Below, piece by piece: positions 1,940 to 62,479 of a DNA stretch of 64,000 nt. Every line of letters begins with the position of its first letter. Position 1 is the stretch's first letter. The notes beneath the pieces were generated by a model that was not told the origin of the DNA, did no database searches, and saw nothing but the letters and a program-made list of their open reading frames with translations. Made by a program: the position numbers and the translations under genes. The stretch comes from Branchiostoma floridae (lineage: Eukaryota): NCBI RefSeq assembly GCF_015852565.1, contig NC_136205.1:3002707-3066706 (forward strand), read 5' to 3'.

Positions 1940-2115
1940 TGCTGTGATGAGCAAATGTGTCCAGGAGAAGAAAAGACGGGAGCAGGAGAAGATGTACATC
2001 GAGGAGCTGGCTGAACTCATTTCCTCCAACATGGAGAACCTGATGACCATCAAGGCAGACAAGTGTGCCATCTTACAGGAGGCTGTAAAACAGATCAAGG
2101 CTCTACGGCACCAAG
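1940..2115 (+). CDS. NCOA: NCOA/SRC p160 coactivator homolog, bHLH exon (SKCVQEKKRREQE...ELAELISSN...DKCAILQEAVKQIKALRHQ)
   Basis: Acceptor ctgtccAG at 1938-39, donor GTAGGA at 2116. Translation matches the SRC-family bHLH (EKRRREQE.KYIEELAEL). It enters with phase 2 from an upstream exon outside the window. Confidence 0.85.
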
Positions 2116-2385
2116 GTAGGACCGTTTCTCTGACCGTCTTAATCATGAAAGTACAGATGAATTAGGTACAGACCAAGTCTCCACGGCGCCAAGGTACATG
2201 TAGGACTGTTTCTCTGACCGTCTTAATCATGGGAGTACAGATAAATTAGGTACAGGTCAAACAGTTCAAGAGTCCACGGCACCAAGGTAGGACCGTATCT
2301 CTGACCGTCTTAATCATGAGAGTATAGATAAATTAGGTACAGGTCAAACAGACCAAAGCTCTACGGCTCCAAGGTAGGGAGACCG
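2090..2385 (+). repeat. Tandem array (~85 bp unit, 4 copies). It duplicates the last ~25 nt of the bHLH exon plus the 5' splice donor (CTACGGCACCAAG|GTAGGACCGTTTCTCTGACCGTCTTAATCATG...).
   Basis: GT donors recur at 2116, 2194, 2287 and 2374 with near-identical flanks. Confidence 0.8.
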
Positions 2386-3284
2386 GATACTGTAGACATA
2401 TTTCTTTCTCTGCTAAGAGGAAGAGTATGGAAGCTAAACACACTACATTACCAGTGGACTAGCCTCCTGCTGTAGTGCTTGCACCTATGTGTGGCCCTAG
2501 GGCTATGAAACTGAGATGGGCACCGGGCGAAACACATCTCACTGATGGGACTTTAGCTTTGGGATTGTTTCTCTTGAGTTTAATCATGGGAGCCTTCATT
2601 TCAGACCAGGGATGTGTACCCGTATAGAAAATTCAGGTATAGGACAGACGGTCACCAAAATGTCTGTGAAAATAAAGTTGTGGTTGTGTAAAAAAAGCTC
2701 CTTGGTCAAATAGAGTAAGGCTGTACGGCAATACCCACTTGCAAACGGAAAAACATTTTGCTTGGAGCAGTAATACAAGAATGTAATGACTTGGAAGTAG
2801 GGCAACCTGAAATGCAGCACCTGGCTTTTAACTCAGGTTGTCACCTTAGCAAGCAAAAAAGGATTTTGAGCACCGCCTTCATTTCAGGCAGCGTAATTTT
2901 CTGATCGCTAACGGTTTGTAATCGCTGTCCAGATGAGTTAACATGATAGCGATTAGAAAATGCAATTGAGAAGAATAAGATGCAAGGCGGGGTCTTCAAC
3001 AAAGGCTATAATAATTAGAAAGGGTGGAGGCTTTTGCATACAATGTCAAGGACTGAATGTCTGAATGTCTCAAACAAAAGATGAAAGGCATGGATGGTAC
3101 ACTAAAGTTTTTATGGCAAACTGACACGTATAATTTTGTATGAGATCGCGTGACAGGCTGAATAGAAGTTCAAAACTTAACTATGCTGCTCCAGATGTCT
3201 AACTGAGGGATGACAGTCACTGTAGTGTGCAAGATGTTGGTAGCTTGATTAATGAATCCACTCTACTATATATTACGTGGCGTA

Positions 3285-3495
3285 ATCAGCAGCACGTTGG
3301 ACTCAAGCCCATGAGGTCCCGAGTTCGAAACCTACCGTGTCACCGATCTTGTGTCCTTAGGGAAGGCTCTTTACATGACTTTCCTCACTTCACTCAGGTA
3401 TAAATGAGTATCTAGCTCTGGCAAGGTCCAACCCTCGGATTGGACGCTAAGGTCCCTTATTCGAGGAGAGCCACACCCTGAACACGTAAAAGAAC
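3285..3495. mobile_element. tRNA-derived SINE copy (box-B-like GGTCCCGAGTTCGAAACC, then ...GGCTCTTTACATGACTTTCCTCACTTCACTCAGGTATAAATGAG)
   Basis: Shares its body with the copies at 28290-28480, 35265-35345, 39300-39400, 42895-43110 and 53690-53835. Confidence 0.65.
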
Positions 3496-3761
3496 CCGCC
3501 ACACTTATCGAAAAGAGTAGGGGAACTTCCCGGTGTGAGTTGATCAAACTATTCCGGCTAAATTGGGTAGGCTGGTAGGGAGTTTTCCCGAGCAGCCTTC
3601 GTAATCCCAGCTTCGCCTATTGGGTCAGTAAGTCGAAGCTCGATGTTTCTGACTTAGGAAGAAAAGATGCAGTGCTACATTGAGCGTAGTTCAGTGCCTA
3701 GAAGTGGTCAATGGCCTTGCACTGAGCAAACTCCTTAAAAAAGAATTGCTGCTGCATACAG

Positions 3762-4512
3762 TGCAGCAGCGCCACCCAGAGGTGAAGATTCATACTGCAG
3801 GATACTTGTATGTTGGAAGGGCCTTCACAGCAGTGACATCTAGAGGTGTACATGTGTACTGCAGGTTCTTGCTGCAACAACAACAACAAGAAGTTTATTT
3901 AGCAAAGTTGCCATAGGTGCAATCATGTATCTTACAGAATTCAAGCATTTTGATAGTGCTGCAGAGGTTGAATCCTTCCAGATTCAGAGTACAAGCCAAC
4001 CTGATAGGAAAAAAAACAGAAATGATATATAAAAGACATCCAAACTTAGTTTGATACACCATAAGAAGTTGAAATGTAGAAGTCAAAATGTATGGTTTCG
4101 AGTATGTATGTCTTTGAAATTTGAAAAATGACTTAGCAAATTTCAAAAGTGTTTTGTCCTGTTTCTTGCAGAGGAATCAGCAGCAAGGGAAGCAGTGCAG
4201 CAGTCTGATGTGTCGTCGAGCGGCCAGTCTCTCCTGCCTAGTAATGTGCTGGGGAATTTACTCTTAGAGGTAGGACAGTGTTTCTGGGTACAGCAGAGCC
4301 ATCTAGAGGTGAAGCTTCATACTGCAGGATATAGGAGCATAACAAGATATAGCAGTATTTTGATGATAATAACAAATTAACATTGCAGGCCAAGAGTTAA
4401 CCAAAATTAGATGCTGTTACAGTAGTAATCAGGGTTTCAGGCAGTACAGCAGTGCCCCTAGAGGTGAAACTTCATACTGAAGGAAATAGGACCATCATAA
4501 TAGGATATAGCA
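3762..4512 (+). repeat. Dispersed/tandem ~65 nt intronic repeat flanking NCOA exon 2 (CAGCAG.GCC.CTAGAGGTGAAGCTTCATACTGCAGGATA...)
   Basis: Copies at 3762-3815, 4285-4350 (immediately after the exon 2 donor) and 4440-4512. Confidence 0.7.
4172..4269 (+). CDS. NCOA: NCOA homolog exon 2 (ESAAREAVQQSDVSSSGQSLLPSNVLGNLLLE)
   Basis: AG at 4170-71 and GTAGGA at 4270. Homologous to the vertebrate SRC segment QKSDVSSTGQGVIDK...LLLEALDG. Phase fits exons 1 and 3. Confidence 0.8.
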
Positions 4513-5031: not shown

Positions 5032-5209
5032 GCACTGAATGGGTTCCTGTTCGTAGTGAACAGCCAGGGAAAGCTGGAGTTCATCTCCAACAATGTGCAG
5101 AACTACCTGAGCTACACACACGATGAGCTGATGGGATCCAGCGTCTACAACATCATCCATGTGGGCGACCACACTCAGTTTGTCAACTGCCTCCTCCCTA
5201 TGTCTCTTG
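5032..5209 (+). CDS. NCOA: NCOA homolog PAS-A exon (ALNGFLFVVNSQGKLEFISNNVQNYLSYTHDELMGSSVYNIIHVGDHTQFVNCLLPMSLG)
   Basis: Acceptor ttcacAG and donor GTAAGG. Near-collinear with human SRC PAS-A (LDGFFFVVN...VYSILHVGDH.EFVKNLLPKS). Confidence 0.9.
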
Positions 5210-5810: not shown

Positions 5811-6005
5811 GCAATGGAGTGGGCTGGGCACCGGATGCCGCGGGAAAGAAGTGTCGTTCGTTCCAGTGTCGCATGATGGTGAAACTGGAAGCAGAGGAAG
5901 ACATGGAGAAACATCGCACGCAGACGCCCCAATACAAGACCATGCAATGCTCCGCTGTCTACCACCCCCACCCCACCAAGGGAAAGACTGAAGACGGCAA
6001 TGATG
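5811..6005 (+). CDS. NCOA: NCOA homolog exon 4 (GNGVGWAPDAAGKKCRSFQCRMMVKLEAEEDMEKHRTQTPQYKTMQCSAVYHPHPTKGKTEDGNDG)
   Basis: Acceptor ctttaaAG at 5809-10 and donor GTGAGT at 6006. In-phase ORF segment. Confidence 0.75.
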
Positions 6006-7051: not shown

Positions 7052-7285
7052 TCCCAGAAGCATGTCTCGTCTGCATTGCCAGTAAAGTGGCAGAGGCAAC
7101 TGACGTGGAGACAGTCATGCCGCTGGAACAGTTCTCCACGCGGCAGGACATCAATGGGAAAATCCTTGCCGTGGACACCAGCGGACTCAGCACGTCGGTC
7201 CCCCACGGGGAAATCGTGCGGCGCTGCCTCACTGAGCTCTACAAGGACTGCGAAGCTTGGGTCATGTCCAAACACCATAGAGAAG
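7052..7285 (+). CDS. NCOA: NCOA homolog PAS-B exon (PEACLVCIASKVAEATDVETVMPLEQFSTRQDINGKILAVDTSGLS...CLTELYKDCEAWVMSKHHRE)
   Basis: Acceptor ttttcAG at 7050-51 and donor GTGGGG at 7286. Resembles vertebrate SCLICIARR...TKQDTTGKIISIDTS. Confidence 0.8.
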
Positions 7286-8505: not shown

Positions 8506-8653
8506 TAATGGCATGTGGAACGGCCACAAGTCAGATTTACAAGTTTCAACTGCCAGGAGGCAACTGGGTCCACGCCCAGACGAAGAGCAAGTTGTTCCGG
8601 AACCCAGAGACGAAGGAGCCTCAGTACATCATGTCTATGTACTCTCTCATCAG
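8506..8653 (+). CDS. NCOA: NCOA homolog PAS-B exon (MACGTATSQIYKFQLPGGNWVHAQTKSKLFRNPETKEPQYIMSMYSLIR)
   Basis: Acceptor tttacAG and donor GTGATT. Matches vertebrate AHTKCKL...PQ.IMGIH. Confidence 0.85.
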
Positions 8654-9036
8654 GTGATTTTATTTTTCATTACTCAGAGAAAGGATTAGAACACTGCACT
8701 GGGAATTTTCTATTTGGTCAGCTACAGACTGACTTAAAAACGTTGAAGTACAAGATACAATCGATTGTGTTAAACCTACTTTCCTCTCTGCTGCACTGTA
8801 CAAAACTGTCACAGCTTGCCAAGAAGGTGTTGCATAATGACATTAATGAAAACTTTTTAAAAAAAAGGAAGTAAAACCCAACAAAATTTGGAGTCAACAT
8901 TGGGACTAGACTAGCCACATTTTATATTGTTCTTCATTGACTTTGTTTTTCCACTTACTAAAGTTGCCATGAACATTCAGACAAGAATTTGCAATGACTT
9001 ATTCATTAAATGCAAGAAATTGATATTTGTGTACAG

Positions 9037-10937: not shown

Positions 10938-12882
10938 GTGTGGAGTAACCTCTTCAAGGGTCACCTGCCCCTGTCCAGCCAGCAGGAGATGGTGGTGGGA
11001 GTTCTTCACCAGCTCCACTCCCGCATGCGGAACGTGGACAAACTGAAACAACATCAGCAGGAATCCCTCTCCAAGAAGTCACACGACATCTCGCGGCACC
11101 CCCGCCTGCACAGACTGCTCACGCAGGAGCTCAGTAGACCGGGTTCGTACGCGGACTTGTCGATGTTTGAGAGCGAGACGGTGTCCAGCTCCTGTGGAGA
11201 CATCCCGAATGAGGTCTTCACGAGGGAAGATAGCATGGAGTCAGAGTCGAGCGACAGCCGAAGCGGGGACGCAACTCTTCTTCACAAGCTGCTTGAAACC
11301 AGACCGTCGATGCAAAGCCAGGACACGGAGATCCCGATAACGTCTCTGGCCAGCGGCACAACTACAACCACCACGGTCACGACGCAGTCCGTGTCGAGTA
11401 TCGCCAGCCCTGCGGCCACCATGCCCACTTGGAGTACAGCTCGGTCGGGACAACAAGTTGCTGTCGTACTACCCGAGCAGCGGCATCCGCAAATGGAATG
11501 GCAGACGGACAAAGAACACGGAAAGCCTAGTGGGGAGAAGGCAGGCCCGCATAAGCCTATGCTCATGGGAAAGAACTTGGTTAGCTTATCCGAGGAGCAG
11601 AAAATTTCCGCAGACAGCACGAGCTGCGACAGCATGTCAAGAAATGTACCGAAAATGGGGAAGGCCGAACACGCAATGGGCAAAAGGCCAGGACTGCAAC
11701 CAACACCACTGAACAGACAGAACAGTGACATGTCTGTAGCTTTGAGGCAGCCCAGCTGCTCAAGTGTTAGCCCAACAGGTTCAGTTTCGTCCGCAAAGGG
11801 AATAGAGCCAACAGTTCAGGGCCTAAATCAAGGCGCTACGACGACTCCAGTTGGTGACGAGGAATTGACAGATGCTGCATTAGAGACCCCATTGCTTAGA
11901 CAGCTGCTAAGTACGGACAAACGTGGCGAGAACGACGCCGGGATGACCCCCGAAGAGAGGGAACGACAACGGAAGGAAGTGCTTCTTGAGAAGATGCTGC
12001 AAGACGATGACTCGCCAAAGACCGGTGGCACCCCCCACGTTACTGGTCAGCAGGCTACCGTCAGGATGGCGGACAGCACAAGCACAAACGGAGACCTAGA
12101 GAAGAAAGAGAAACAGGAGCAAGTCAATAAGATCTTGCAGAACCTCCTTGCTGCTACCGGCAGTGCCCCGCTAGACACCATGCCAAGCAATGTAGCCGAT
12201 TGGGACGACGAAGCTCTTCTGGATCTGATCAAGCAAGAGGGAGACAGCCTGCTGAGCAATATACAAGGCGTTGGGGTTGGTGGGAAAGGCATGACGGACG
12301 TGACGTCTAGTCAGGACACCATGCAGTTCCACACGGCAGGCGGAAACGTTGGACACGTGTCGATCATGCCTTCGTCCTTCCCTCCGGCAGCTTTACCGAT
12401 CACTGCCACCGCGGGGACGAACTTGAACATCGGCATACTCGGCTCCAACGCTTCCCAAAGACTCAATTCTGATCCGTCAAGCCAAGTTTCAAAAGGCCTT
12501 GACAACGTGGGAGTTCCGCCGAGTTTGAGCGCTGGAAGCCTACAGAACAGCGAGCAAGTCATCGCTGAGTTAGAAAACCTTCTTGGTCTCCAAGGAAACA
12601 ACAGTCTTCTCGGGACGCAGCAAGGTCCAGGAGTGAGCCGTTTTAACCAAATGGGCAGTTCTGTCATGGGTTGGTCCGACCCCCCACAGGGTGGTGATCT
12701 CGTCGCCCAGCTAGAAAGTGTTCTAAAGAGCGACAGTTCCATTCTATGTGAAATTGACCAGCTGCTCGGGATTGCGCCCTCCGCCGGCGGTGTTCCGATG
12801 ACCCCAGGGGCGGAGGGTGGGGATTTCTCCATGCTAGATGGGGGACTGGATGGTTCGCAGTCCTTTCCTCCAATGGGGCCAG
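10938..12882 (+). CDS. NCOA: NCOA homolog large exon 9 (nuclear-receptor interaction domain with three LXXLL boxes: LLHKLLE, LLRQLLS, ILQNLLA)
   Basis: The 1945 nt open frame starts right after acceptor tctatAG. The donor is GTAATA at 12883. It is S/T-rich with three NR boxes, as in SRC-1/2/3. Confidence 0.85.
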
Positions 12883-13249
12883 GTAATAATAATAGTGTTT
12901 TATTGCAAATTCATGCCTATGAGGCTAAATCAAATGCTAATGTACTAACTATGAAATTAAAAGTGATTGTACATGCATGTATGTGGGCTAATAACAAGTG
13001 AATAATCTAAATTGTAACATGGCAGTTGAAAATGAAACATCTTATATTTTCTATGATATAGGTTGATGTGATGATCTCCGTAAGAAGAGCATTTTAAAGT
13101 TTGTGTTTTTCTAGCAATGAAAAGCATGGTGTGATTTCGGATGCTTTTCAAATAGTCATTTTCCTTCAGCATGGAATCTGGGACATTCACAAATGAAATG
13201 TGTTTCCACTGCTTTCTTGTGCACTGCTTACCAATTCTCCCATGAACAG

Positions 13250-15352: not shown

Positions 15353-15773
15353 GGAATGGGGTCCAATCCGTCAGCAGCTCCACACATGGCTGGCCGTCCC
15401 AACAACCCTCTAAACTTCCCCAGCGGTGGTGGTGGGGTAAACTTTCCCCAGGGGGGTGGGGCTGGCATGAACATGGCCCAGCCTGGCAACACCATCGGTG
15501 TCCAACAGGGAGGTGTTAATCTTCCCCAGGGTGTTGGTATGACCCGCCCTCCAGGCGCAAATACTGGCATGAACTTTCCCCAGGGCGTAAATAGCAGCTT
15601 GAGCCATCCCCAGAGTGGTAATGGTGGTATGAACCACCCCCAGGGTGTAAACACAGGCATTCCCCACACCCAGGGAGTCAACAGTGGCATGAGCCGCCCC
15701 CAGAGTGGCCAGAGCAACATGAGCTCCCAAGGCTCGGTCTTCCCATCACAACAGGGTGGCAACATCAACCAAG
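15353..15773 (+). CDS. NCOA: NCOA homolog exon 13, G/N/P/Q low-complexity repeats (G(M/V)N(F/H)PQGVN x about 7)
   Basis: Acceptor ctttgcAG and donor GTGAGA. The long ORF 15341-15787 has imperfect 9-10 aa repeats. Confidence 0.7.
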
Positions 15774-26464: not shown

Positions 26465-26900
26465 TAGCCTCACTAGGGCTGGGTACTGGTACAGAAAATT
26501 CAGGTCCAGGTCCGGTTCAGGTCCAAAGGATCAGGTCCAGGTCCGGACCTGAACTTGGACCTGATGCAGTATGACTCATACCAATGGTCCATATCACTAC
26601 AAAGAAATCTGTTTGGTGGAGTATTAGACTTACACTGGCGTTTTAAAATCCTACAACGCTAACTGCACCTGTACAATTGGCTGTAAAACTTGGTAGAAAT
26701 TACTATAAACTCTACACTACTTCGCTCTTGTTATTTTCTTCCACCTGCAAGTGCCAAAACGTGTGAATGCCTGATAAAATAATCTGTTAATTTTCTAATC
26801 GGTCCAACATCCGGTCAACCTAATTTTTTCAGGTCCGGTTTTTCTGGACCGGTCCAATAAGAAAAACCGGTTTTGTACCGGTAAGCCCTAAGCCTCACCG
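26465..26900 (+). mobile_element. MITE (~435 bp) with TIR CTAGGGCTGGGTAC.GGTAC and an internal palindrome GGTCCAGGTCCGGTTCAGGTCC...GGACCTGAACTTGGACC. This is copy 1 of 3.
   Basis: Near-identical copies at 31067-31500 (inverted) and 33637-34075. Confidence 0.8.
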
Positions 26901-31066: not shown

Positions 31067-31500
31067 GCTATTAGGGCTGGGTATCGGTACAGCGTACCGG
31101 TACAAAACCGGTTTTTCTTATTGGACCGGTCCAGAAAAACCTTACCTGAAAAAATTAGGTGGACCGGATGTTGGACCGATTAGAAAATTAACAGATTATT
31201 TTATCAGGCATTCACACGTTTTGGCGCTTGCAGGTGGAAGAAAATAACAAGAGTGAAGTAGAATGGAGTTTATAGTAATTTCTACCAAGTTTTACAGTCA
31301 ATCGTACAGATGCAGTTAGCGTTGTAGGGTTTTAAAACGCCAGTGTAAGTCTAATACTCCACCAAACAGATGTCTTTGTAGTGAAATGGACCATTGGCAT
31401 GAGTCATACTGAATCAGGTCCGGGTTCAGGTCCGAACCTGGACCTGATCCTTTGGACCTGAACCGGACCTGGACCTGAATTTTCTGTACCGGTACCCACC
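31067..31500 (-). mobile_element. MITE copy 2 (inverted orientation), flanked by a (GTTT)n microsatellite at 31570-31600
   Basis: Reverse complement of 26465-26900 and 33637-34075. Confidence 0.8.
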
Positions 31501-32559
31501 CCTAGTGGCTATAGTCATTTTAAGAATGTAGATTCTGAAGTAATTTTTCACCTAGTTCAAGGCGTAGGTATTGTTTTCGTTCTTTTGTTTGTTTGTTTGT
31601 TTGTTTGAAGTGATATGTGTTGAACATTGTTTCTGCTGGCCCGGCTCCAAGTTTGTTCCCGGGATGAGTTGTAACCAGAGACTAACAGGATGCGAAGACT
31701 GATCTGGCCTACTTCAGAATGTCTTAAGAAGGCAGGAAGTGAACACATGGCCAAAAGTTGGGAACCCGAGGAGGGCATGTACCCGAGAGTGTAGAATGAA
31801 ATGTGTAAATTAAACGAGGTTGTGCAATATTTTTCAAGAAATTAACAAAATCTTTCTGCTATTCATTTGTGTGTGATGTGTACAAAAAAAGTGGAATAGA
31901 GGGTGATCACCCGAAAGTAAGTCGTTGTAATCAGATCTGTGTTCTTAACGTGTGGCTACTGTCATTTGAACACTTTAGGCATGATTTGTTGATTTGCGGA
32001 GTGGTGTACAGGGTCCTTCATTTTCTGGTACTCTCTTTACCTCAATGGCTTTCATGACTCATCGATGGACCCTCAGACGGGGTCTTGTTTATGTGTTGCC
32101 ATAGCAACGGCGCCATAAGGGAGCCAGGCATAAGAGTGCTTCCTGTCACCCTAAGAAATTATAATACTGATTAATGTATATATTTTCCTGCTTTTTTGGT
32201 ACTTCCTTATAATCATCGCTCTTTGCGGCAACATGAATGATTTCCAAAACCATATCCAGTTGCTTGTCAATGAGTAACTACTATTTGTCGTAAAAGCTAT
32301 AGATGCCCAACGTTCATCGACGTATGAAAAAATTCTCTTTTCTCCACTAGCTGGAAACAAGACTCATCTTTTGATAAGTCTAGAAGTATTTTTAAATGAA
32401 GACCTATGGTCAAGTATATATATGACTCCAGTTTATTGTATGTATTTTTTAATATGTGAATATTAGGGAAAGCTATATTTCTTGCCGGTTTACAAAAGAC
32501 TTATAATAGATTACGAAGATTTCCTCCTGACCCTTATAGAAAGTCTTTGGTCGTTGACA

Positions 32560-33636: not shown

Positions 33637-34075
33637 AGGGGTGGGTACACCGGTACAGAAAATTCAGGTCCAGGTCCGGTTCAGGTCCAGATGATCAGGT
33701 CCAGGTCCGGACCTGAACCTGGACCTGATTCAGTATGACTCATACCAATGGTCCATTTCACTACAAAGAAATCTGTTTGGTGGAGTATTAGACTTACACT
33801 CAGCGTTTTCAAACCCTACAACGCTACCTGCACCTGTACGATTGGCTTTAAAACTTGGTAGAAATTACTATAAATTCTACTCTACTTCACCCTTGTTATT
33901 TTCTTCCACCTGCAAGCGCCAAAACGTGTGAATGCCTGTTAAAATAATCTGTTAATGTTCTAATCGGTCCAACATCCGGTCCACCTAATTTTTTCAGGTC
34001 CGGTTTTTCTGGACCGGTCCAATAAGAAAAATCGGTTTTGTACCGGTACGCTGTACCGATACCCAGCCCTAGTCT
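33637..34075 (+). mobile_element. MITE copy 3, followed by a (CAAA)n microsatellite at 34196-34250, immediately upstream of EGF-kringle gene exon 2
   Basis: Same family. The MITE plus spacer plus microsatellite unit is an inverted duplicate of 31067-31600. Confidence 0.8.
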
Positions 34076-45583: not shown

Positions 45584-46422
45584 TCACATATATACCAGTT
45601 GGCGTGGAAAGATGGTCACAGTACGGAGCTGTACGTTCGCCACCACCAACTGTCCGTCCGGCCCCATGGCAACACCAGCTGGGTTGGTAATGTTCGCGAG
45701 GGTGCGGACAAAATCCCCACGGCTTGTATACATGTCAACCGCCTCTGGTTGCAATTTCGTCACAATGATGCGACCCAAAGTGTCCAAGCAAATACCTCGT
45801 GGAATACCCGACCGTCCTTCTAGTCCAAGTGTCCTGAATGTGACTAGCCTTGCCCCGTAGCGGTTGTAGACCTGGATTTTATTCGCGGTCGATACCAAGA
45901 TGTTTCCCTCGCTGTCTGTGGTTACATATGACACGGGGAACTTTCGTCTCTCCTCAAATTTCAGATGAAGCGAGCCGTTCGACTGGTAGATCAGAACTCC
46001 ACGCATGCTGGTCACGATGACTTTGTGGTCAGTCACGCCAACTGCAATGCCAGGATTCACGGACACGAAGTTGACGTCAAACGTGAACAGAGGCTGCCCA
46101 TTGCGTCTGTACTGCACCACATGTGCTTTAACATTAATATTCTTCCTCTTCCCCACTACCCACAAATGCCCCTCTCCGTCCACGGCGACATCGCTTGGTT
46201 GCATTTTCTTCACCGCGACCCCAGGGACGATTGTTCGGAAGAAGCGGCGATAGGCTCCGCTTATGTTGTAGACATGGACCCTTCTCTTCTGGAAATCAGT
46301 CACGAAGATCTCGTTGTCAGCAGAGACAGCCACTCCACGGTGACTTCGAATTTGGTTTAGTGAGCCTCCTCCCGTCCCAACCGGGACAACCATCAGTGTT
46401 CGGTCATTAATGTCATGGGAAC
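45584..46422 (-). CDS. NPxY/NHL gene copy A, NHL-repeat beta-propeller exon (six NHL repeats, ...FVTDFQKRRVHVYN...GHLWVVGKR...VIVTSM...GNILVST...RIIVT...GQLVVAN...). Terminal exon.
   Basis: Acceptor tttcactgcAG at 46424-23 (phase 1). 269+ aa are open to the stop. NHL signatures match the TRIM-NHL/teneurin-type propeller. Confidence 0.8.
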
Positions 46423-47995
46423 CTGCAGTGAAAGGAAGAGGATGCGATCAATGATAACCTGGCCCTGGTACGAACGTTCGAACAAAGCCTGTTACAGTTA
46501 GCAAAACTAAGAAAATTTTTTCATTCGGGCAACCAGCACGACCGGATGATGATGAAAGAAATCTTAGTAATTCCCAGGAAAGAAATAATGGCTTTTTTAT
46601 GTAAACTATGCAAGTTAGGTCCGCATTTGCATATCCTGTGTCTGTTTATGTTTATGTTTATCTGCCAGAACTTACACATGTTGCATGTATAAAAGTCCTT
46701 TAGTGGGGAAAATAATAGATGGGATAATTTCCTAAATGATTATCCAAATTTATTTTTGTGTACCTCTCCCTAAGCTACTTACGTGCCAAATATTATGGAA
46801 ATTTGTTCAATTATCTCTGCATTTGCATATACTGTGTTAAACCTGCCAGAAATTACACGTTACATGTATCTAAGTCCTTCACTATGGAAAATAATAGATG
46901 AGAGGATGTCCTGATTAATCATTCAAATTTATTTGTCAGCATCTCTTCATCAGCTACCTGGGTTCCTTTGTCACCTTTTGTTCAAGTATCTCCTTGGAAA
47001 GAATAAAAACGCCCCAGCGGTTCCAGAGCAAGCTCCAGAGGTGCCCGAACCTACACTTCTTATTATATATTGACAAAAACTATCTTCCACTAAAAATCAA
47101 GACCAAAGCATGTCCAAGACAAAAGATTACCATGTGACGTGCTTGAGATTGACGACAGCGTTGGCGTTGTTATCCCAAAGGGACCACTGGCAGTCGTGAC
47201 CTAGTAAGAGAATACGAATGGTCTAATAAACGTGTGATCTAGTCAGTGTGTTTGTTTGTTTGTTTGTCTTTCTGTGCGTTCGAAGTTTTGCCGATATTCT
47301 AGCAGCATGAAAGGGGGCATGGAAGAGTTGCAGCATGGAAGGGGGAAGTGGTGTAATAGGATACTTGCAGAATTGAAAATATGGATAGGCTGCAAAACCA
47401 TGTAGCACATTACATTGTTTTGTTTGTTAAGAGACCAGATTCTGGTCTTCAGTAGCTTCAGATAGATCGTTTCCGTTAAGGGTATGAAAAAGTGATCTGT
47501 AGAAATATGAAATACGTGATCTATAACCAATAGGAAGCGTGACAAGCATTCTCTCCCACCGTTAAGTCCTCAGGGGCCTCTGACGTCATTGTCGTCCTGC
47601 CAGAAGGACAACAGATGGGGCGATCCGGGGTATGGATCGGTCTTGATTTCTGCTGTCGATGGGAGACATTGTCATAAAGTCATTGAGTCACACACTAAAG
47701 TGGTCATCTCATGAGACTGCGCCAAATTGCGCGAGGAAATTACGTAAAATGTAAAAAAAAAATCCTTTGTGGTTATACGAACGTGCGACGCAATTTCGTA
47801 TGAAGCCCATATAAGAAGATTATTGAAAAGATATTATTAAATGTATAAACTGCCCTGTTTCACGCCGCTTGCGCCTATTTTGCGAACATTTAGCAAAGGA
47901 AACTATCAGATGAAAGAGTTGGAAGAATACCAGCTGCAGGCTAGAAGTAAGAAGAGAAAGCCAAAAACAGACGGTACACGAGATCGAGAGGGTAC

Positions 47996-48120
47996 CATTG
48001 GAGCATTCGGCGTGCTGTTGTTGATGAATGCAAACTTTAAACTTCCACCGATGACCAATGACAACAGGGTAACAGCTGTACATGCGAAGACAGCAACGTA
48101 CTCCCACCGCAATTTCAAAA
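47996..48120 (-). CDS. NPxY/NHL gene copy A, candidate TM exon (VLKLRWEYVAVFACTAVTLLSLVIGGSLKFAFINNSTPNAPM)
   Basis: Acceptor cctttacAG and donor ATG|GTACCC. Phase 1-in, but phase 0-out, which does not match the NHL exon (needs 1). Usage is uncertain and possibly isoform-specific. Confidence 0.45.
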
Positions 48121-48516
48121 CTGTAAAGGCATATTTTAGGACACCGTAATACCGTCCAAAGGAAAAAATCATGATAATAGAAGTAGCATTCTTAGTGTTA
48201 GTAAACACTAAGAAAAAGGCCGCATATATGAACATTTTCTGTAAAACAGATTACGTTCTAGCTTAATGAGCAGAAAACCAACCATTGAAACTTGAAAATG
48301 ATGTTTTGAAGTGATGTTTTACTTGTAGAATTCTGTCAGTTTGTTTGATCAAACCAAAGGCACCGTGCGAGAATAGGATAAGATATGTTACATGTTACAT
48401 AGGATGCTACATTTACGTCAGGTGGAAACAAAAGTGAGTCCATTCATTTGAAAAATAAGATCGCTACCCATTACTTGAAGCCTAAGCCATGACAAGGTCA
48501 CAAAAGACAATCTTAC

Positions 48517-49732
48517 CACCAACGTTCTGTTGGGGACCGTTTTTCACGTGCATTGGTGCCTGATTTGCCTGAACGGTGCCATGTGTGATGGAGCTGCATC
48601 TTTCTGACCTGGTGGAGGTATCGTCATCCCCACCTGTGTATGCGACTGCGTAAGGTTCAATGTGGACATCGTCAGGGCTGACATCTTGCGTTCGTTCGTT
48701 CTTGGTCACGTTTCTTCTAGCTTCCATGTCTTCATCGTTCTCATACCTAACCGCATATGGTTCGATGTCGGCATTGCCAGGGATACTGCTTTGTATTTGT
48801 CCTCTCCCTATCGCATTATTACGTCTGGTAACGATGCCATCATTGTCATCATCTGTCTGGTATCTAACAGCATACGGAATGATGTTAAAACTCTCACCAG
48901 TGTCTGTTTGCCAGGAGGCAGATTTACCCGCTTCGGTGTCCCGACTTGCTTGTGGCTCAATGTCTGTATCCGCTTTGGGGTTCAGATCTTCCGCCGTTGT
49001 TTCGACAGTTCCTGATGATGTTGCAGTTCCTGATGTTATGAGGGTTGTATCCGACTCTGATGCAGGTAATGAAGGGTCAGGGGCGTACATGGGATTATGG
49101 TCGCATGATTTTGGCTGGTACCCCGAGGTGCAGTTTAGTGCGTTTTGCCCGTACATCGGATTGGGGGTTTCAGTGTCTGCGACATTTTGCGCGTACATCT
49201 GATTCCGGGCTTGGTCATTCTGGACGCATGCCGTAAGTGGATAGAGTACATTAGAGCGATGTAGAGTATTAACCGTGTTTCCGTCATTTCTAACAAGATC
49301 GATCTTAGCATCATTCTTAGTTGCATCGCATCCTTCAATGTTTGTTAAGGTGTTATCGGTGTTGTTCTGTTCAACGTAAGATTCCGTTGTTTCACTCTCT
49401 TCTGAAACTGTCTTGAAACACACCATGTGATCCTGACAAATGTAAGTAACTTTATGTGGTACAATATGGGCATCACCATGGTTACAATCGACAGTCGGGG
49501 CGATTTCATCAATAGCATCACCCTCTGTGGGGCTGCTCTCACCATCAATGTAGTCGTCGTCGCCATCTTTTTTACATCTGAGATCATATGGCCTGGTGAA
49601 GAGATCGCCATCATTGTCAGCCTGGCTGTAAGCAAGGTCAGTAGTTGTAGAATTCAGACCTGCTGGAGTCGTCTCGTCTTGCTGTAAATCTCCCGTGTTG
49701 TCACCCACTGAGACGTTGTCATCCTGTTGCAT
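48517..49732 (-). CDS. NPxY/NHL gene copy A, exon 1: acidic S/T/D-rich N-terminal region. It has 3x N(P/Q)MY motifs and 3x (I/E)PYAV(R/A)Y repeats.
   Basis: ATG at 49732 (ttatgcaacagG context). The 416-aa ORF is open to the donor G|GTAAGA at 48516-15 (phase 1). No signal peptide. Confidence 0.7.
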
Positions 49733-56631: not shown

Positions 56632-57642
56632 TCACTATGATTCGTCCATTACTTGAATATGCTGACATTGTTTGGTGTGGCCTTCTCGGCAAAGATTGTG
56701 ATCTTCTTGAGTCTGTCCAGATGGCCGCGGCACGAGTTTGTACCGGAGCCATGAGAGGCACTAAACATGAGAGCTTGTTAGCCGAGGTTGCATGGGACAC
56801 ACTAGCGGACAGAAGGAAAAAGCACCAGTTGATTCAGTTTTGGAAAATTATGAATGGTCTCGCACCACTGTACTTACATAATATTATCCCTCCACGTATC
56901 TGTGATACGGTCCCTTACAACCTTCGCGCAAACCAAAACCTTACTTCCATTGCCTGTAAAACTGAAAAGTATAAAAGATCCTTCCTACCTTCAACTGTTC
57001 ACTTGTGGAATGAACTGCCTACGAATGCTAAAGCCGTCCTTTCGATCAACACTTTCAAAAAAGAGCTGGACTCACTATTCAACAAGCCGACAAAATACTC
57101 CCATTTCTCTTATGGCCAAGGTCGTTCCGCAGTTCATCTTACAAGGCTCCGTCTAAACTTCAGTCAGTTAAACTACCATCTATTTCAACACCATTGTATT
57201 GATTATCCTACATGTAAATGCGGCTATCATTGTGAAACAACCGAACATTATCTACTACACTGCACACTCTATACTAGCCAAAGAAGTTCTTTGTTATCGG
57301 CTGTCTCAAATATTATAGTAGACCTAAAGCACCTCAACGACACTACTTTATGTACTTTACTGTTATCAGGATCAACATCTCTCTCACATCAACAGAACTG
57401 TAACATTTTTGATCTTGTCATTACCTATATCCATTGTACAGGCAGGTTCTCCTAATTGATTCAGCACCAACTTGTCTTGTTTAAATTTATTTTTCTGTTA
57501 TCCATTTTGTACTTATGTATGTAATGTCGTTTACTATTCTTGTTTTATGCGTATGTTTCTTGAGTAGAAGGCTTAATATAAGCAATTTGTGCTTTCCGCC
57601 TCATACTCGCAAAATATATGTGAATAAAATAAAATAAATAAA
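56632..57642 (+). mobile_element. 5'-truncated non-LTR retrotransposon (LINE). It keeps the ORF2 C-terminal tail with a CCHC motif and an (AAATAA)n 3' end, flanked by ~18 bp target-site duplications.
   Basis: ORF 56637-57455 translates to the conserved LINE ORF2 tail (LLEYADIVWCG...ESVQMAAARVCTGAMRGT...LADRRKKHQLIQFWKIMNG...CKCGYHCETTEHYLLHC). The TSDs are AACTGTCGATGGTATGTC at 56613-56630 and AACTGTCGATGGTACGTC at 57643-57660. Confidence 0.8.
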
Positions 57643-58313: not shown

Positions 58314-59565
58314 TTGACGTTATACAACCAGGATGACCACATCTCACTAGAGGAAAACACAGGCGATCTACAGCAAGACGAGACGACTCCAGCAGGTCTG
58401 AATTCTGGAAATACTGAACCTGCTTCCAGCCAGGCTGACAATGATGGCGATCTCTTCACCAGGCCATATGATCTCAGATGTACCGAAGATGGCAAAGACG
58501 ACTACATTGATGATGAGAGCAGTCCCACAGAAGGTGATGCTGCGGATGAAATCGCACCGACTGTCGATTGTAACCATGGTGATGCCCATATTGTGCCATA
58601 CAAAGTTACTGACACGTGCCAGGATCACATGGTGTGCTTGAAGACAGTTTCAGAAGAGAGTGAAATAACGGAATCTTGCGTTGAACATAACAACACTGAT
58701 AACACCTTCACAAACATGGATGAATGTGACCCAACTAAGAGTGATGCTAAGATCGATACTGTCGTAAATAACGGAACCACGGTTAATACTCCACACTGCT
58801 CTAATGTACTCTATCCACTAACGACATGCGTCACGAATGTCCAAGCCCGGAATCAGATGTACACGCAAAATGCCGCAAACTCTGAAAACCCCAATCCGAT
58901 GTACGCGCAAAACGCCATAAACTGTGCCTCGGTGTACAAGCCAAAAGCCTGCGACCCTAATCCGATGTACGCCCCTGACCTTCCATTACATGCAACAGAG
59001 TCGGATACAACCCTCATAACATCAGGAACTGCAACATCATCAGGAACTGTCGAAACAACCGCGGAAGATCTTAACCCCAAAGCGGATACAGACATTGAGG
59101 CACAAGCAAGTCGGGATACCGAAGCTGGTAAATCTGCCTCCTGGCAAACAGACACTGGTGAGTGTTTCAACATCACGCCGTATGCTGTTAGATACCAGAC
59201 AGATGATGACAATGATGGCATCGTTACCAGAAGTAATAATGAGACAAGTAGAGGACAAACACAAAGCAGTATCCCTGGCAATGTCGACATCGAACCATAT
59301 GCGGTTAGGTATGAGAACGATGAAGACCTTGCAGCTAGAAGAAACGCAGCCAAGAACGAACGAACGCAAGATGTCAGCCCTGACGATGTCCACATTGAAC
59401 CGTACGCAGTCGCATACACGGGCGGGGATGACGATACCTCCACCAGGTCAGAAAGATGCAGCTCCACCACACATGGCACCGTTCTGGGGGGCAACAGTGA
59501 TGCGCGTGGCGTTAGAGATCAGGCACCGATGCATGTGCAAAACGGCCCCCAACAAAACTTTGGAG
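58314..59565 (+). CDS. NPxY/NHL gene copy B, exon 1 (acidic N-terminal region with NPMY x2, NQMY and PYAV(R/A)Y x3). The initiator ATG seen in copy A is mutated here (ATG to ATA plus a 1-nt indel).
   Basis: The ORF is open over 58314-59565 to donor G|GTAAGA, but it has no in-frame ATG until residue ~100. It is about 87% identical to copy A. Confidence 0.55.
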
Positions 59566-59812
59566 GTAAGATTGTCTATTGTGGCCATGTGCATATAACG
59601 GCTTAGACTTTGCGTAATGGACATCTATCTTACTTGCTCTAATGAAAGTGTCAACTTTTGTCAAAACCTGATGTGAATATAACAAAGCAAAAAATTTAAT
59701 ATCTGAGGCCTTTTGCTTTACTAGCACTGTAATCTTTAATACTACTTCTTTATCATTTTGATTTTTTTTTCCTTTGGATGTTATTATGGTGTCCTAAAAT
59801 ATGCTTTTACAG

Positions 59813-59937
59813 GGTTGCAAGTTCGATGGAAGTACGTCGCTGTCCTCATATGCACAGCTGCTGCCCTGTTGTCATTGGTCATTGGAGGAAGTTTAAGTTT
59901 CGCATTCATCAACAACAACACGCCGAATTCTCCTATG
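59813..59937 (+). CDS. NPxY/NHL gene copy B, candidate TM exon (LQVRWKYVAVLICTAAALLSLVIGGSLSFAFINNNTPNSPM)
   Basis: Acceptor gcttttacAG and donor ATG|GTACGC. Same phase problem as copy A. Confidence 0.45.
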
Positions 59938-61628
59938 GTACGCTTTCGTATACCGTTTTTTTTTTTGCTTTGTCTTCTTATCTTTAGCCTGGTATTCTTC
60001 CTCTTCTGGCGCACCTTCTTTCCGCTGATAGTTTCCTTTGTTAAATTTTCTTAAGAAGCGACGAGCGTTATCTCACTGGACTGCGCCAGATTGCACAAAG
60101 CTTTCACAAAAATTGTGCAAACCGACCCAAATTGGCACTGATCCGTGTAATGTGTAGTCTGAAATCGTGATTTTGTTAGACATTGCATTTACAAAATAGG
60201 CGCAAAGCAGCGCGAAACAGTGTAGTTTATACATTTAATGATATATAGATCTGCAAGTTCCAATAACCTGCTTATACGGGCTTCATATGCAATTGCGTCG
60301 CACATCAGCGAAACCACAAGAGAAAATTGGCATGTCGACCTCGCGCATGTTGGCATAGTCTTGTGAGATAACCACTTTAGTAATGACTTAAGTATGTGCC
60401 ATAGTCTTGTGAGATAACCACTTTAGTATGTGGCTCATCAAATTCATGACAATGTCTTCCATCGAGAGCAGAAATCAAGACCAATCCATACCTCGGATCG
60501 TCCCATCTGTTGTACTTCTGGCCATGGGTGGACGACAAAACCTGAGCTGACGTCAATAGCCCCTGAGGACTTTAAGGTAAGAAGAATGCTTAACAAGCTT
60601 CTTTACTTTTCAGCCATACTTCCAGTTTCCGATAGGTAGATGAAAGCACATATTTCATACTGTAAGCGTTTTGTCATGTGAAGTTAAGCAAACAAAATAA
60701 TGTAAGGTGCTACGCACTCATACAAAGATGTTGCAGCCATCAAGACATTGAATTGTCAGAAAGCTGTTTCAAATTCCTTGGAACTTCTGCATCACTTAAT
60801 CTTTTATTTGTTTTAGCAAACCGATAAGATGTCGAAGGATTATGACATTACCTTCTGATTTATCTATCTTATTTACTTATAATATTTGTTACATAAAAAA
60901 ACTTAACTCAAAGTGGTACCAAAGTCTACATACTGCAACATTGGACAAGAGTCTAACCATATTTTCAATTCTCTAAGTATCTGTTTACATCACTTCATGC
61001 TGTCACTTGGGAATATCAGCACGACTTCGAACGCACAGAAACTGATTAGAATATCATTGTTTTCACGCGTTAATGAGTTCATTCGTATTCTCTAACTAGA
61101 GCACGACTGCCAGTGATCCTTTTGGGGCAACAACGCCAACACTCTCGCCAATCTCAAGTACATCACACGGTAATAGTTTGTCTTGGACATGCTATGGTTT
61201 TGAATTTTGGTCAAGATAGCCTTTCATGGTTAGAAAAAGGAGAATAGACTTGTGCACCTTCTGAGTTTGCTCTGTAACCGAATATGATTCAAATTTAAAG
61301 GAGATGATATTCAGCATGCAGGCAGCTAATATAAGGAAAAGATGAACACAATAAAATACAAATCACGTAGATTAGGACTTAGTTGGATAATTGAATAGGA
61401 AATTAACTACCCCTCTTGTTTTTCCTAAAAAAAGACTTTAATATATTTAACGTATGTAATTTCTGAGAGGTTTAACAGTAGGCAGACACACGATATGCAA
61501 CTGCGGACTTAACTTGTATAATTCCTACAAAAATGACCTACTTTTAAAATTTTCTTTACGCAATTGTGACAGGCCTTTTTGTACCAGACCAAGTTATCAT
61601 TGATCGAATCCTCTTCCTTTTACTGTAG

Positions 61629-62479
61629 TTTCTCATGACAATAATGACAACTCAGAAAAGGTTGTCGTCGTCGGAAAGGAAGGAAGCACAATAATTGAAG
61701 GTCGAAGTCACCGTGGAGTGGCTGTCTCTGCTGACAACGAGATCTTCGTGACTGATTTCCAGAAGAGAAGGGTCCATGTCTACAACATAAGCGGAGCCTA
61801 TCGCCGCTTCTTCCGAACAGTCGTCCCTGGGGTCGCGGTGAGGAAAATGCAACCAAGCGATGTCGCCCTGGACGGAGAGGGGCATTTGTGGGTAGTGGGG
61901 AAGAGGAAGAATATTAATAAGAAAGCACATGTGGTGCAGTACAGACGCAATGGGCAGCCTCTGTTCACGTTTGACGTCAACTTCGTGTCCGTGAATCCTG
62001 GCATTGCATTTGACGCGACTGACCACAAAGTCATCGTGACCAGTATGAGTGGAGTTCTGATCTACCAGTCGAACGGCTCGCTGCATCTGAGATTTGAGGA
62101 GAGACGAAAGTTCCCAGTGTCATACGTAACCACAGACAGCGAGGGAAACATCTTTGTCTCGACCCCGGGTGAAATCCAGGTCTATAATCGCTATGGGGCA
62201 AGGCTATTCACATTCAGGGCACGTGGACTACAAAAAAGATGGTCGGGTGTTTCCCGGGGAATTTGCTTGGACACTTTGGGCCGCATCATTGTGACGAAAT
62301 TGCAACCAGAGGCGGTTGACATGTATACAAGCCGTGGGGGTTTTGTCCGCACCATCGCGAACATTACCAACCCAGCTGGTGTTGCCATGGGGCCGGACGG
62401 ACAGTTGGTGGTGGCGAACGTACAGCTCCGTACTGTGACCATCTTTCCACGCCAACTGGTATATCTGTCAGACAACTAA
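61629..62479 (+). CDS. NPxY/NHL gene copy B, NHL-repeat beta-propeller terminal exon
   Basis: Acceptor ttttactgtAG at 61627-28 (phase 1). Open to TAA at 62477-79. About 93% aa identity to copy A. Confidence 0.8.

Follow-up and report, generated by a model that had tools for sequence, protein, structure and literature searches.

Why would the end of an exon, together with its splice donor, be reiterated head to tail within the intron that follows it? The question is raised by the first coding exon (1940-2115, + strand) of a gene lying in the window, i.e. the whole stretch of 64,000 nucleotides analyzed here, where the 3' end of the exon, its GT donor and the beginning of intron 1 recur in tandem. 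Is this array genuine, how did it come about, which of its donors is expected to be used, and does it serve the gene in any way? Our analysis points to a genuine, old and slowly decaying array of the minisatellite type, with its first unit straddling the junction of the bHLH exon with intron 1; the array probably evolves neutrally, its pseudo-donors would be mostly silent, and it is most likely devoid of function.

The exon concerned follows an acceptor AG at 1938-1939, contains the ATG at 1947, ends in phase 1 (CAA G/), and encodes a peptide (MSKCVQEKKRREQEKMYIEELAELISSNMENLMTIKADKCAILQEAVKQIKALRHQ) matching the Pfam family bHLH_NCOA (PF23172, E=2.9e-16), in agreement with its original assignment to an NCOA-type protein. 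Intron 1 (2116-4171, + strand, 2056 nt) extends from the donor AAG/GTAGGA at 2116 to the acceptor ttcttgcag/ at 4169-4171, and splicing from 2116 to 4171 restores a Glu codon (G+AG), giving Q-E-E-S. The partner of the authentic donor is exon 2 (4172-4269, + strand), which encodes the linker (EESAAREAVQQSDVSSSGQ...LLLE) and is placed both by the gene model and by orthologue alignment: when compared with ten orthologues, only the junction 2116-to-4172 makes the colinear sequence ...KQIKALRHQ/EESAAREAVQQSDVSSS... Several PAS exons are found downstream (about 5032-5209, 5811-6005, 7058-7285 and 8506-8654), with PAS_9/PAS and PAS_11 matches, and the gene displays the domain order bHLH_NCOA-then-PAS. 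From end to end, the assembled bHLH-PAS protein can be aligned with NCOA-type proteins of an annelid, a tick, a priapulid and others, the best orthologue reaching 46% identity over 100% of the query in the bHLH-PAS protein search. A large coactivator-type exon (10938-13001) contains the motifs LHRLL, LHKLL and LLRQLL; its match to Nuc_rec_co-act falls below threshold (17 bits for a cutoff of 27), and a homology search with this exon returned no match. Judged from its domains and alignments, the gene can be identified as a nuclear receptor coactivator of the NCOA/p160 (SRC) bHLH-PAS type. On the NCOA strand, the C-terminal Gly/Asn/Pro/Gln-rich part of the ORF also harbors an imperfect 30-nt (10-codon) tandem repeat (15565-15703, 4.6 copies, with repeats such as GMNxPQGVN).

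The reality of the array next to this exon is confirmed, well beyond chance. Tandem Repeats Finder recognizes 2107-2378 as a single tandem array (period 87, 3.2 copies, 81% matches, 2% indels, score 316), a repeat search places a 92-nt repeat at three starts (2085, 2169 and 2256) and a 36-nt piece made of exon end plus donor at five (2085, 2163, 2256, 2343 and 2705), and the 12-mer CCAAGGTAGGAC occurs twice for 0.08 occurrences expected. The unit is 87 nt long and is repeated head-to-tail over 2085-2378 in about 3.4 copies (three full copies and a fourth of 36 nt), each unit combining the exon 3' end, a GT donor and ~56 nt of intron. The original prediction of a four-fold repetition holds for the exon end and donor, which are present in four units, but not for the intron part, which occurs only three times, and the exon piece shared by the units is ~28-31 nt long rather than ~25 nt.

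All copies lie on the + strand, and their anatomy differs in ways that matter for splicing. Copy 1 (2085-2171, 87 nt) contains the real exon end (2085-2115), fixed by the gene model and the orthologue alignment, followed by the authentic donor and the initial 56 nt of intron 1. Copy 2 (2172-2255, 84 nt) has a 9-nt deletion at its 5' end and a 6-nt insertion (GTACAT) directly after the GT, and displays two weak pseudo-donors, AAG/GTACAT at 2194 and CAT/GTAGGA at 2200. Copy 3 (2256-2342, 87 nt) carries the pseudo-donor 2287, and the partial copy 4 (2343-2378, 36 nt) comprises only the exon-like piece and GTAGG, with a pseudo-donor at 2374 (AAG/GTAGGG). The first unit contains exon bases 2085-2115 as well as donor 2116, while further GTs (2194/2200, 2287 and 2374) are found inside the intron, and this layout is that of an already described class of minisatellites, whose first unit lies over an exon-intron boundary and whose donor is reiterated in the intron (PMC1557585, Borensztajn et al. 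2006). The present locus is a non-vertebrate and comparatively old member of this class.

The age of the array is suggested by the divergence of its copies. Full copies are 88.5-89.7% identical in gapped pairwise comparisons, and copies 1 to 4 are 88-93% identical, differing at 7-22% of positions and bearing private indels of 9 and 6 nt; a profile built from the copies recovers them in the 64-kb window with nhmmer E-values of 4e-29 to 2e-8, and reveals no further copy of the 87-nt unit there. Near-identical units, as expected for a young or homogenized VNTR, are not what is observed, and the array reads as an old and decaying one, unlike a classical hypervariable VNTR, with a divergence pattern that looks as neutral decay predicts.

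Could the array have been created by the assembly itself, through a false tandem expansion or through collapsed or mis-joined haplotypes? It has been seen in one assembly, and no independent copy of the locus was found: the bHLH-PAS search for the same or a sister species gave at most 46% identity, exact look-ups of three ORFs of the window returned no record, and the exon peptide recovered only a distant metagenomic orthologue. Artefactual duplications are near-identical, whereas the copies considered here are diverged, carry private indels, and adjoin much older relics; they are therefore old and distinct rather than assembly duplicates, and an artefact is very improbable. The metagenomic orthologue corresponds to marine contigs of ~550 nt (L001-L003) containing an animal NCOA bHLH exon (P0001, 71% identical to the exon studied here over 64% of its length) that continues into its own intron at roughly the same place, and represents host or eukaryote DNA within the metagenome. 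Scanning metagenomes with the invariant 18-mer of the array gave eight matches, extending over only 18-24 nt and located in unrelated microbial contigs (for example in an aminotransferase gene), and these were rejected as related loci and attributed to chance.

Where does the unit come from? Besides the exon end, its 3' part provides a second clue, as the terminal ~20 nt of every 87-nt unit, together with the first bases of the unit that follows, match the terminus of a dispersed repeat. The scores of the unit junctions against this terminus are 42, 31 and 24 (P = 0/4000, 0.001 and 0.012, respectively), and since the 3' ends of the units match it, the unit is a composite of the exon end, ~36 nt of native intron and ~20 nt contributed by the dispersed-repeat terminus. 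This origin would also account for copies 3 and 4 starting with GTC where the exon has GTA, provided that the junction of the duplication fell within the GT that CAGGTC, from the repeat, and CTGTAA, from the exon, have in common.

The dispersed repeat itself is present in the window as three copies of ~416 nt that are 95% identical (26471-26886, + strand; 31092-31507, - strand; 33649-34071, + strand). Its terminus reads ..CACTAGGGGTGGGTACCGGTACAGAAAATTCAGG, followed by (CAGGTC)n-like subterminal repeats, and the first two copies are inverted and 4.2 kb apart. The interval between these inverted copies contains no ORF longer than 164 aa, hence none of transposase size, and because of this the repeat is probably non-autonomous; its interpretation as an autonomous transposon was rejected.

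Further traces of the unit's components are found downstream of the array on the + strand. The initial ~36 nt of the intron have an old, decayed counterpart (GGATTGTTTCTCTTGAGTTTAATCATGGGAG) at 2561-2593, with a local alignment score of 31 and an empirical P of about 0.0007 in a comparison with 3000 random windows, and a decayed exon-like copy (GTCAAATAGAGTAAGGCTGTACGGCA), which has lost its donor GT, lies at 2705-2730, with a score of 32 reached by none of 3000 random windows (max 27). Between them, a decayed dispersed-repeat terminus is recognizable at 2604-2660 (score 56 against the element terminus, 0/4000 random windows, max 37). The relics at 2561-2730 are about 65-77% identical, for 88-93% among the copies of the array. 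Two other segments were considered as relatives of the unit and discarded. The 180-nt spacer 2379-2560 is not significantly similar to the unit (P=0.27), has no second copy in the window, and was rejected both as a continuation of copy 4 and as a repeated insertion. The exon 2 donor region (GTAGGACAGTGTTTCTG, with intron 4270-4293, GTAGGACAGTGTTTCTGGGTACAG) resembles a compressed intron part of the unit (empirical P=0.037), a resemblance probably due to splice-site constraint plus chance, and was not retained as a homologue.

A contribution of a dispersed repeat to the unit and to the relic at 2604-2660 might evoke a different origin, in which a mobile element would have captured the exon end and the unit would belong to it, with copies scattered over the genome rather than duplicated locally. 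Such an origin is highly unlikely, as the exon-like and native-intron parts are absent from all three element copies in the window, no further match to the unit turned up in the 64 kb, and of the element just its terminal ~57 nt are present in the intron. Local duplication would instead have proceeded in several steps, whose order we infer. The dispersed element, or a fragment of it, may have been inserted ~36-50 nt into intron 1, and would have been followed by at least two phases of duplication, through replication slippage or unequal exchange: an early duplication spanning the boundary could have left the relics at 2561-2730, and later rounds involving the 87-nt unit would have generated copies 1 to 4.

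The intron in which these events took place is older than the array. In the annelid Capitella teleta, the counterpart intron is likewise in phase 1 (GAA G/gtgagc...cag/AT), has a length of 60 nt, and contains no repeat; counted without gaps from the conserved KQI motif, its position is one codon off, in a linker of poor conservation. As intron position and phase are common to this annelid, the intron is ancient and the array a lineage-specific addition. This has consequences for another possible explanation, the Rogers model, according to which introns may be gained by tandem duplication of an AGGT-containing segment (reviewed in PMC3443670, PMC4974935). As in this model, an internal tandem duplication has copied a splice signal (AAG/GT) here, but no new intron has resulted, the duplication only lengthening an existing intron and adding pseudo-donors to it. 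Because the intron predates the duplication, the model does not apply, and intron gain of this type was rejected in view of the essentially identical position and phase 1 in Capitella and of the pyrimidine-poor AGs of the array: the sequences upstream of the AGs that precede the exon-like pieces contain 27% pyrimidines, for 68-73% at the real acceptors of the gene. Owing to this low pyrimidine content, the use of the exon-like pieces as cassette exons or as recursive splice sites is also unlikely, and both readings were discarded, the pieces being 31 nt long and lacking a polypyrimidine tract. As a separate observation, a ~44-nt motif flanks exon 2 in direct orientation, with one occurrence in intron 1 (3761-3804) and two in intron 2 (4288-4331 and 4442-4484), at 84-89% identity.

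What would the reiterated donors do to the reading frame? The GTs at 2116, 2194, 2287 and 2374 are present as predicted, and a fifth one at 2200 was created by the insertion in copy 2. The four downstream GTs lie 78, 84, 171 and 258 nt from 2116, all multiples of 3, and the five GTs are all in phase 1, so that the view that only the first is in frame has to be abandoned. The downstream GTs are unproductive because of stop codons, not because of the frame. The anticipated in-frame stop is indeed encountered whichever of them is used, or if the intron is retained, the first one being a TAG at 2163-2165 (+ strand) rather than at 2162-64, with more in-frame TAGs at 2247, 2325 and 2334. The array is closed in all six frames and does not constitute a frame-preserving coding extension, although its donors share one phase; use of a downstream GT would lead to a defined product of 72 aa. 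The donor spacings, the unit length (87) and the two indels (9 and 6) are all multiples of three even though every frame contains stops, a pattern that pure neutrality does not account for (post hoc, about 1 in 27).

The strength of the donors was compared by means of an approximate 5' splice-site position-weight matrix, which is suited to relative ranking only. In this approximate matrix, the authentic donor 2116 scores 4.39 bits, 2287 scores 4.39, 2374 scores 4.71, 2194 scores 1.77 and 2200 scores 1.23; 2116, 2287 and 2374 are the top three of the 135 GTs of intron 1, their approximate scores being typical of the gene's other donors. Six of the nine positions from -3 to +6 match the U1-complementary consensus CAG/GTAAGT, which corresponds to sites of moderate strength. 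The donors were initially described as having essentially identical flanks, which is true of 2287, whose 21 nt from -11 to +10 are the same as in the authentic site, and roughly of 2374, identical from -5 to +5, but not of 2194, where the 6-nt insertion results in AAG/GTACAT. On these scores and sequences, the two GTs of copy 2 appear crippled, while 2287 and 2374 would be intact pseudo-donors, as strong as the authentic one. That 2287 equals and 2374 slightly exceeds the authentic score in the approximate matrix counts against the view that these pseudo-donors are silent.

Which donor is then expected to be chosen? Natural precedents are provided by other boundary-spanning minisatellites, and they do not all behave in the same way. 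Intron 7 of human F7 (IVS7) contains a polymorphic array of 37 bp x 5-9, of which only the most upstream donor is used (PMC1557585), and only the authentic donor is reported to be used in human LMNB2 (100 bp x 10-15) and in PDGF intron 4 (81 bp x 16-18) (PMC1557585). In these three genes, the upstream donor is exclusive even when facing identical or stronger pseudo-sites (PMC1557585). The F7 pseudo-sites work once the authentic site is mutated, do not compete with it even after their consensus value has been raised to 91, and adding or removing units leaves F7 splicing unaltered (PMC1557585). In contrast, the authentic donor plus one or two pseudo-sites are used in human IFI6 (6-16) intron 2, which has 25 pseudo-sites, and in CBS intron 13, which has 15-20 repeats (PMC1557585). 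Use declines with distance, consistent with exon definition (PMC1557585). A different rule emerged from globin and adenovirus constructs, in which two strong, equivalent 5' splice sites separated by 45 nt or more result almost wholly in the intron-proximal (downstream) one being spliced (PMC3413131, Hodson et al. 2012), a rule that would favor the pseudo-sites here.

Among these systems, F7 IVS7 offers the closest parallel, with a first unit containing the exon end and the authentic donor, sites of moderate strength, and potentially functional pseudo-sites downstream. Its unit of 37 bp, including four exon bases, and its 5-9 strictly identical copies nevertheless differ from the 87-nt unit, ~30 exon bases and 3.4 copies of the NCOA-type gene, whose copies are moreover 7-22% diverged, are accompanied by older relics, derive in part from a repeat element, and belong to a non-vertebrate host. 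LMNB2 and PDGF have in common with the present array a boundary-spanning layout and a similar unit length (81-100 bp for 87), but comprise many more copies. As in IFI6 and CBS, reiteration of the donor results from a repeat lying over the boundary; constitutive use of the first one or two pseudo-sites is seen in those genes, whereas here the nearest ones, in copy 2, are weakened and any use adds a stop. Finally, the substrates of Hodson et al. share with this locus the competition in cis of equivalent 5' splice sites, more than 45 nt apart, for one 3' splice site, but they have consensus-strength sites and short artificial introns, while the sites considered here are of moderate strength and are found in a natural context of exon definition, the productive one being the distal site.

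F7-type precedents predict use of 2116 and silence of 2287 and 2374, and exon length agrees with this prediction (176 nt with 2116, for 347 nt with 2287 and 434 nt with 2374). We infer that the productive mRNA would result from splicing of donor 2116, the authentic one and the most upstream, to the acceptor at 4171, with 2287 and 2374 remaining mostly silent; any leakage to the downstream sites would bring a TAG into the message and yield an unproductive transcript, probably subject to nonsense-mediated decay.

The competing view is that 2287 and/or 2374 are used appreciably, giving stop-containing NCOA transcripts that would lower or tune coactivator output, either through unproductive splicing coupled to nonsense-mediated decay or through a bHLH-only peptide of 72 residues. 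Several of the above features lend it some weight: 2287 and 2374 are the best GTs in the intron, with 21 nt of identity for the former and a slightly higher score for the latter, equivalent strong sites obey an intron-proximal preference (PMC3413131), pseudo-sites are used constitutively in IFI6 and CBS (PMC1557585), and the in-frame TAG at 2163 would delimit a defined 72-aa product. The sites are nonetheless moderate (6/9 consensus positions), which is the regime of exclusive upstream use in F7, the nearest pseudo-sites, those of copy 2, are the disabled ones, a 347- or 434-nt exon would be needed, and the copies are decaying like neutral DNA with no sign of conservation. As the intron-proximal rule holds for high-occupancy consensus sites and the sites here are moderate, we consider silence of the downstream donors probable, and their appreciable use rather unlikely. 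A more elaborate version, in which regulated use of 2287/2374 would switch the NCOA pre-mRNA between a productive and a stop-containing message, the latter being degraded in an autoregulatory manner or translated into an Id-like, dominant-negative 72-residue bHLH-only peptide, is decidedly improbable.

Selection could also have retained the array as a cis-element, perhaps an intronic enhancer or a group of binding sites for the U1 snRNP, which might reinforce the moderate donor, suppress premature cleavage, or supply back-up donors. Three intact 5' splice-site motifs of moderate strength are indeed present within 260 nt, three of the copies share an unchanged 22-nt core (TCTCTGACCGTCTTAATCATG with its flanks), and the intron-derived halves of the units are more alike (92.9% identical) than the exon-derived ones (77-87%). 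The conservation of the core is, however, not significantly above the expectation at ~7% divergence (rough estimate, P about 0.1), F7 splicing is unchanged by deleting or adding units (PMC1557585), nothing comparable exists in the short intron of the annelid orthologue, and back-up donors would all give a stop-containing mRNA, which makes a selected cis-element a slim prospect. A role as a structured intronic RNA (snoRNA, miRNA or ribozyme), including a hammerhead-like impression, was rejected for both the array and the spacer 2379-2560: the predicted fold of the array RNA is not significant (z=-0.6), and neither segment has an Rfam match at the gathering threshold or at E<=1, nor a tRNA.

If this reading is right, its significance would mainly be that of a caveat for annotation, as gene predictors and splice-site scorers meet three equally good donors within 260 nt, of which only the first leads to the real protein. 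The locus also adds a non-vertebrate case to the few natural loci with competing identical 5' splice sites (F7, CBS, IFI6, LMNB2 and PDGF), and could help to test two conflicting rules, scanning for the most upstream site and intron-proximal preference. No new mechanism is indicated, and the layered copies, with the terminus of a repeat element incorporated into the unit, illustrate the rise and decay of such arrays.

Other features of the window lie far from the array. A 272-aa ORF (56637-57455, + strand) has the look of a C-terminal segment from a protein of a non-LTR retrotransposon, with no Pfam match at E<=0.01. An inverted (mirrored) duplication of a two-gene block is found at 45584-49732 (- strand) and 58314-62479 (+ strand). 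The block comprises an acidic ORF without Pfam match, whose copies at 48482-49732 and 58314-59606 are 80% identical, and an NHL-repeat ORF (Pfam NHL, E=1e-11), whose copies at 45584-46393 and 61718-62479 are 90% identical.
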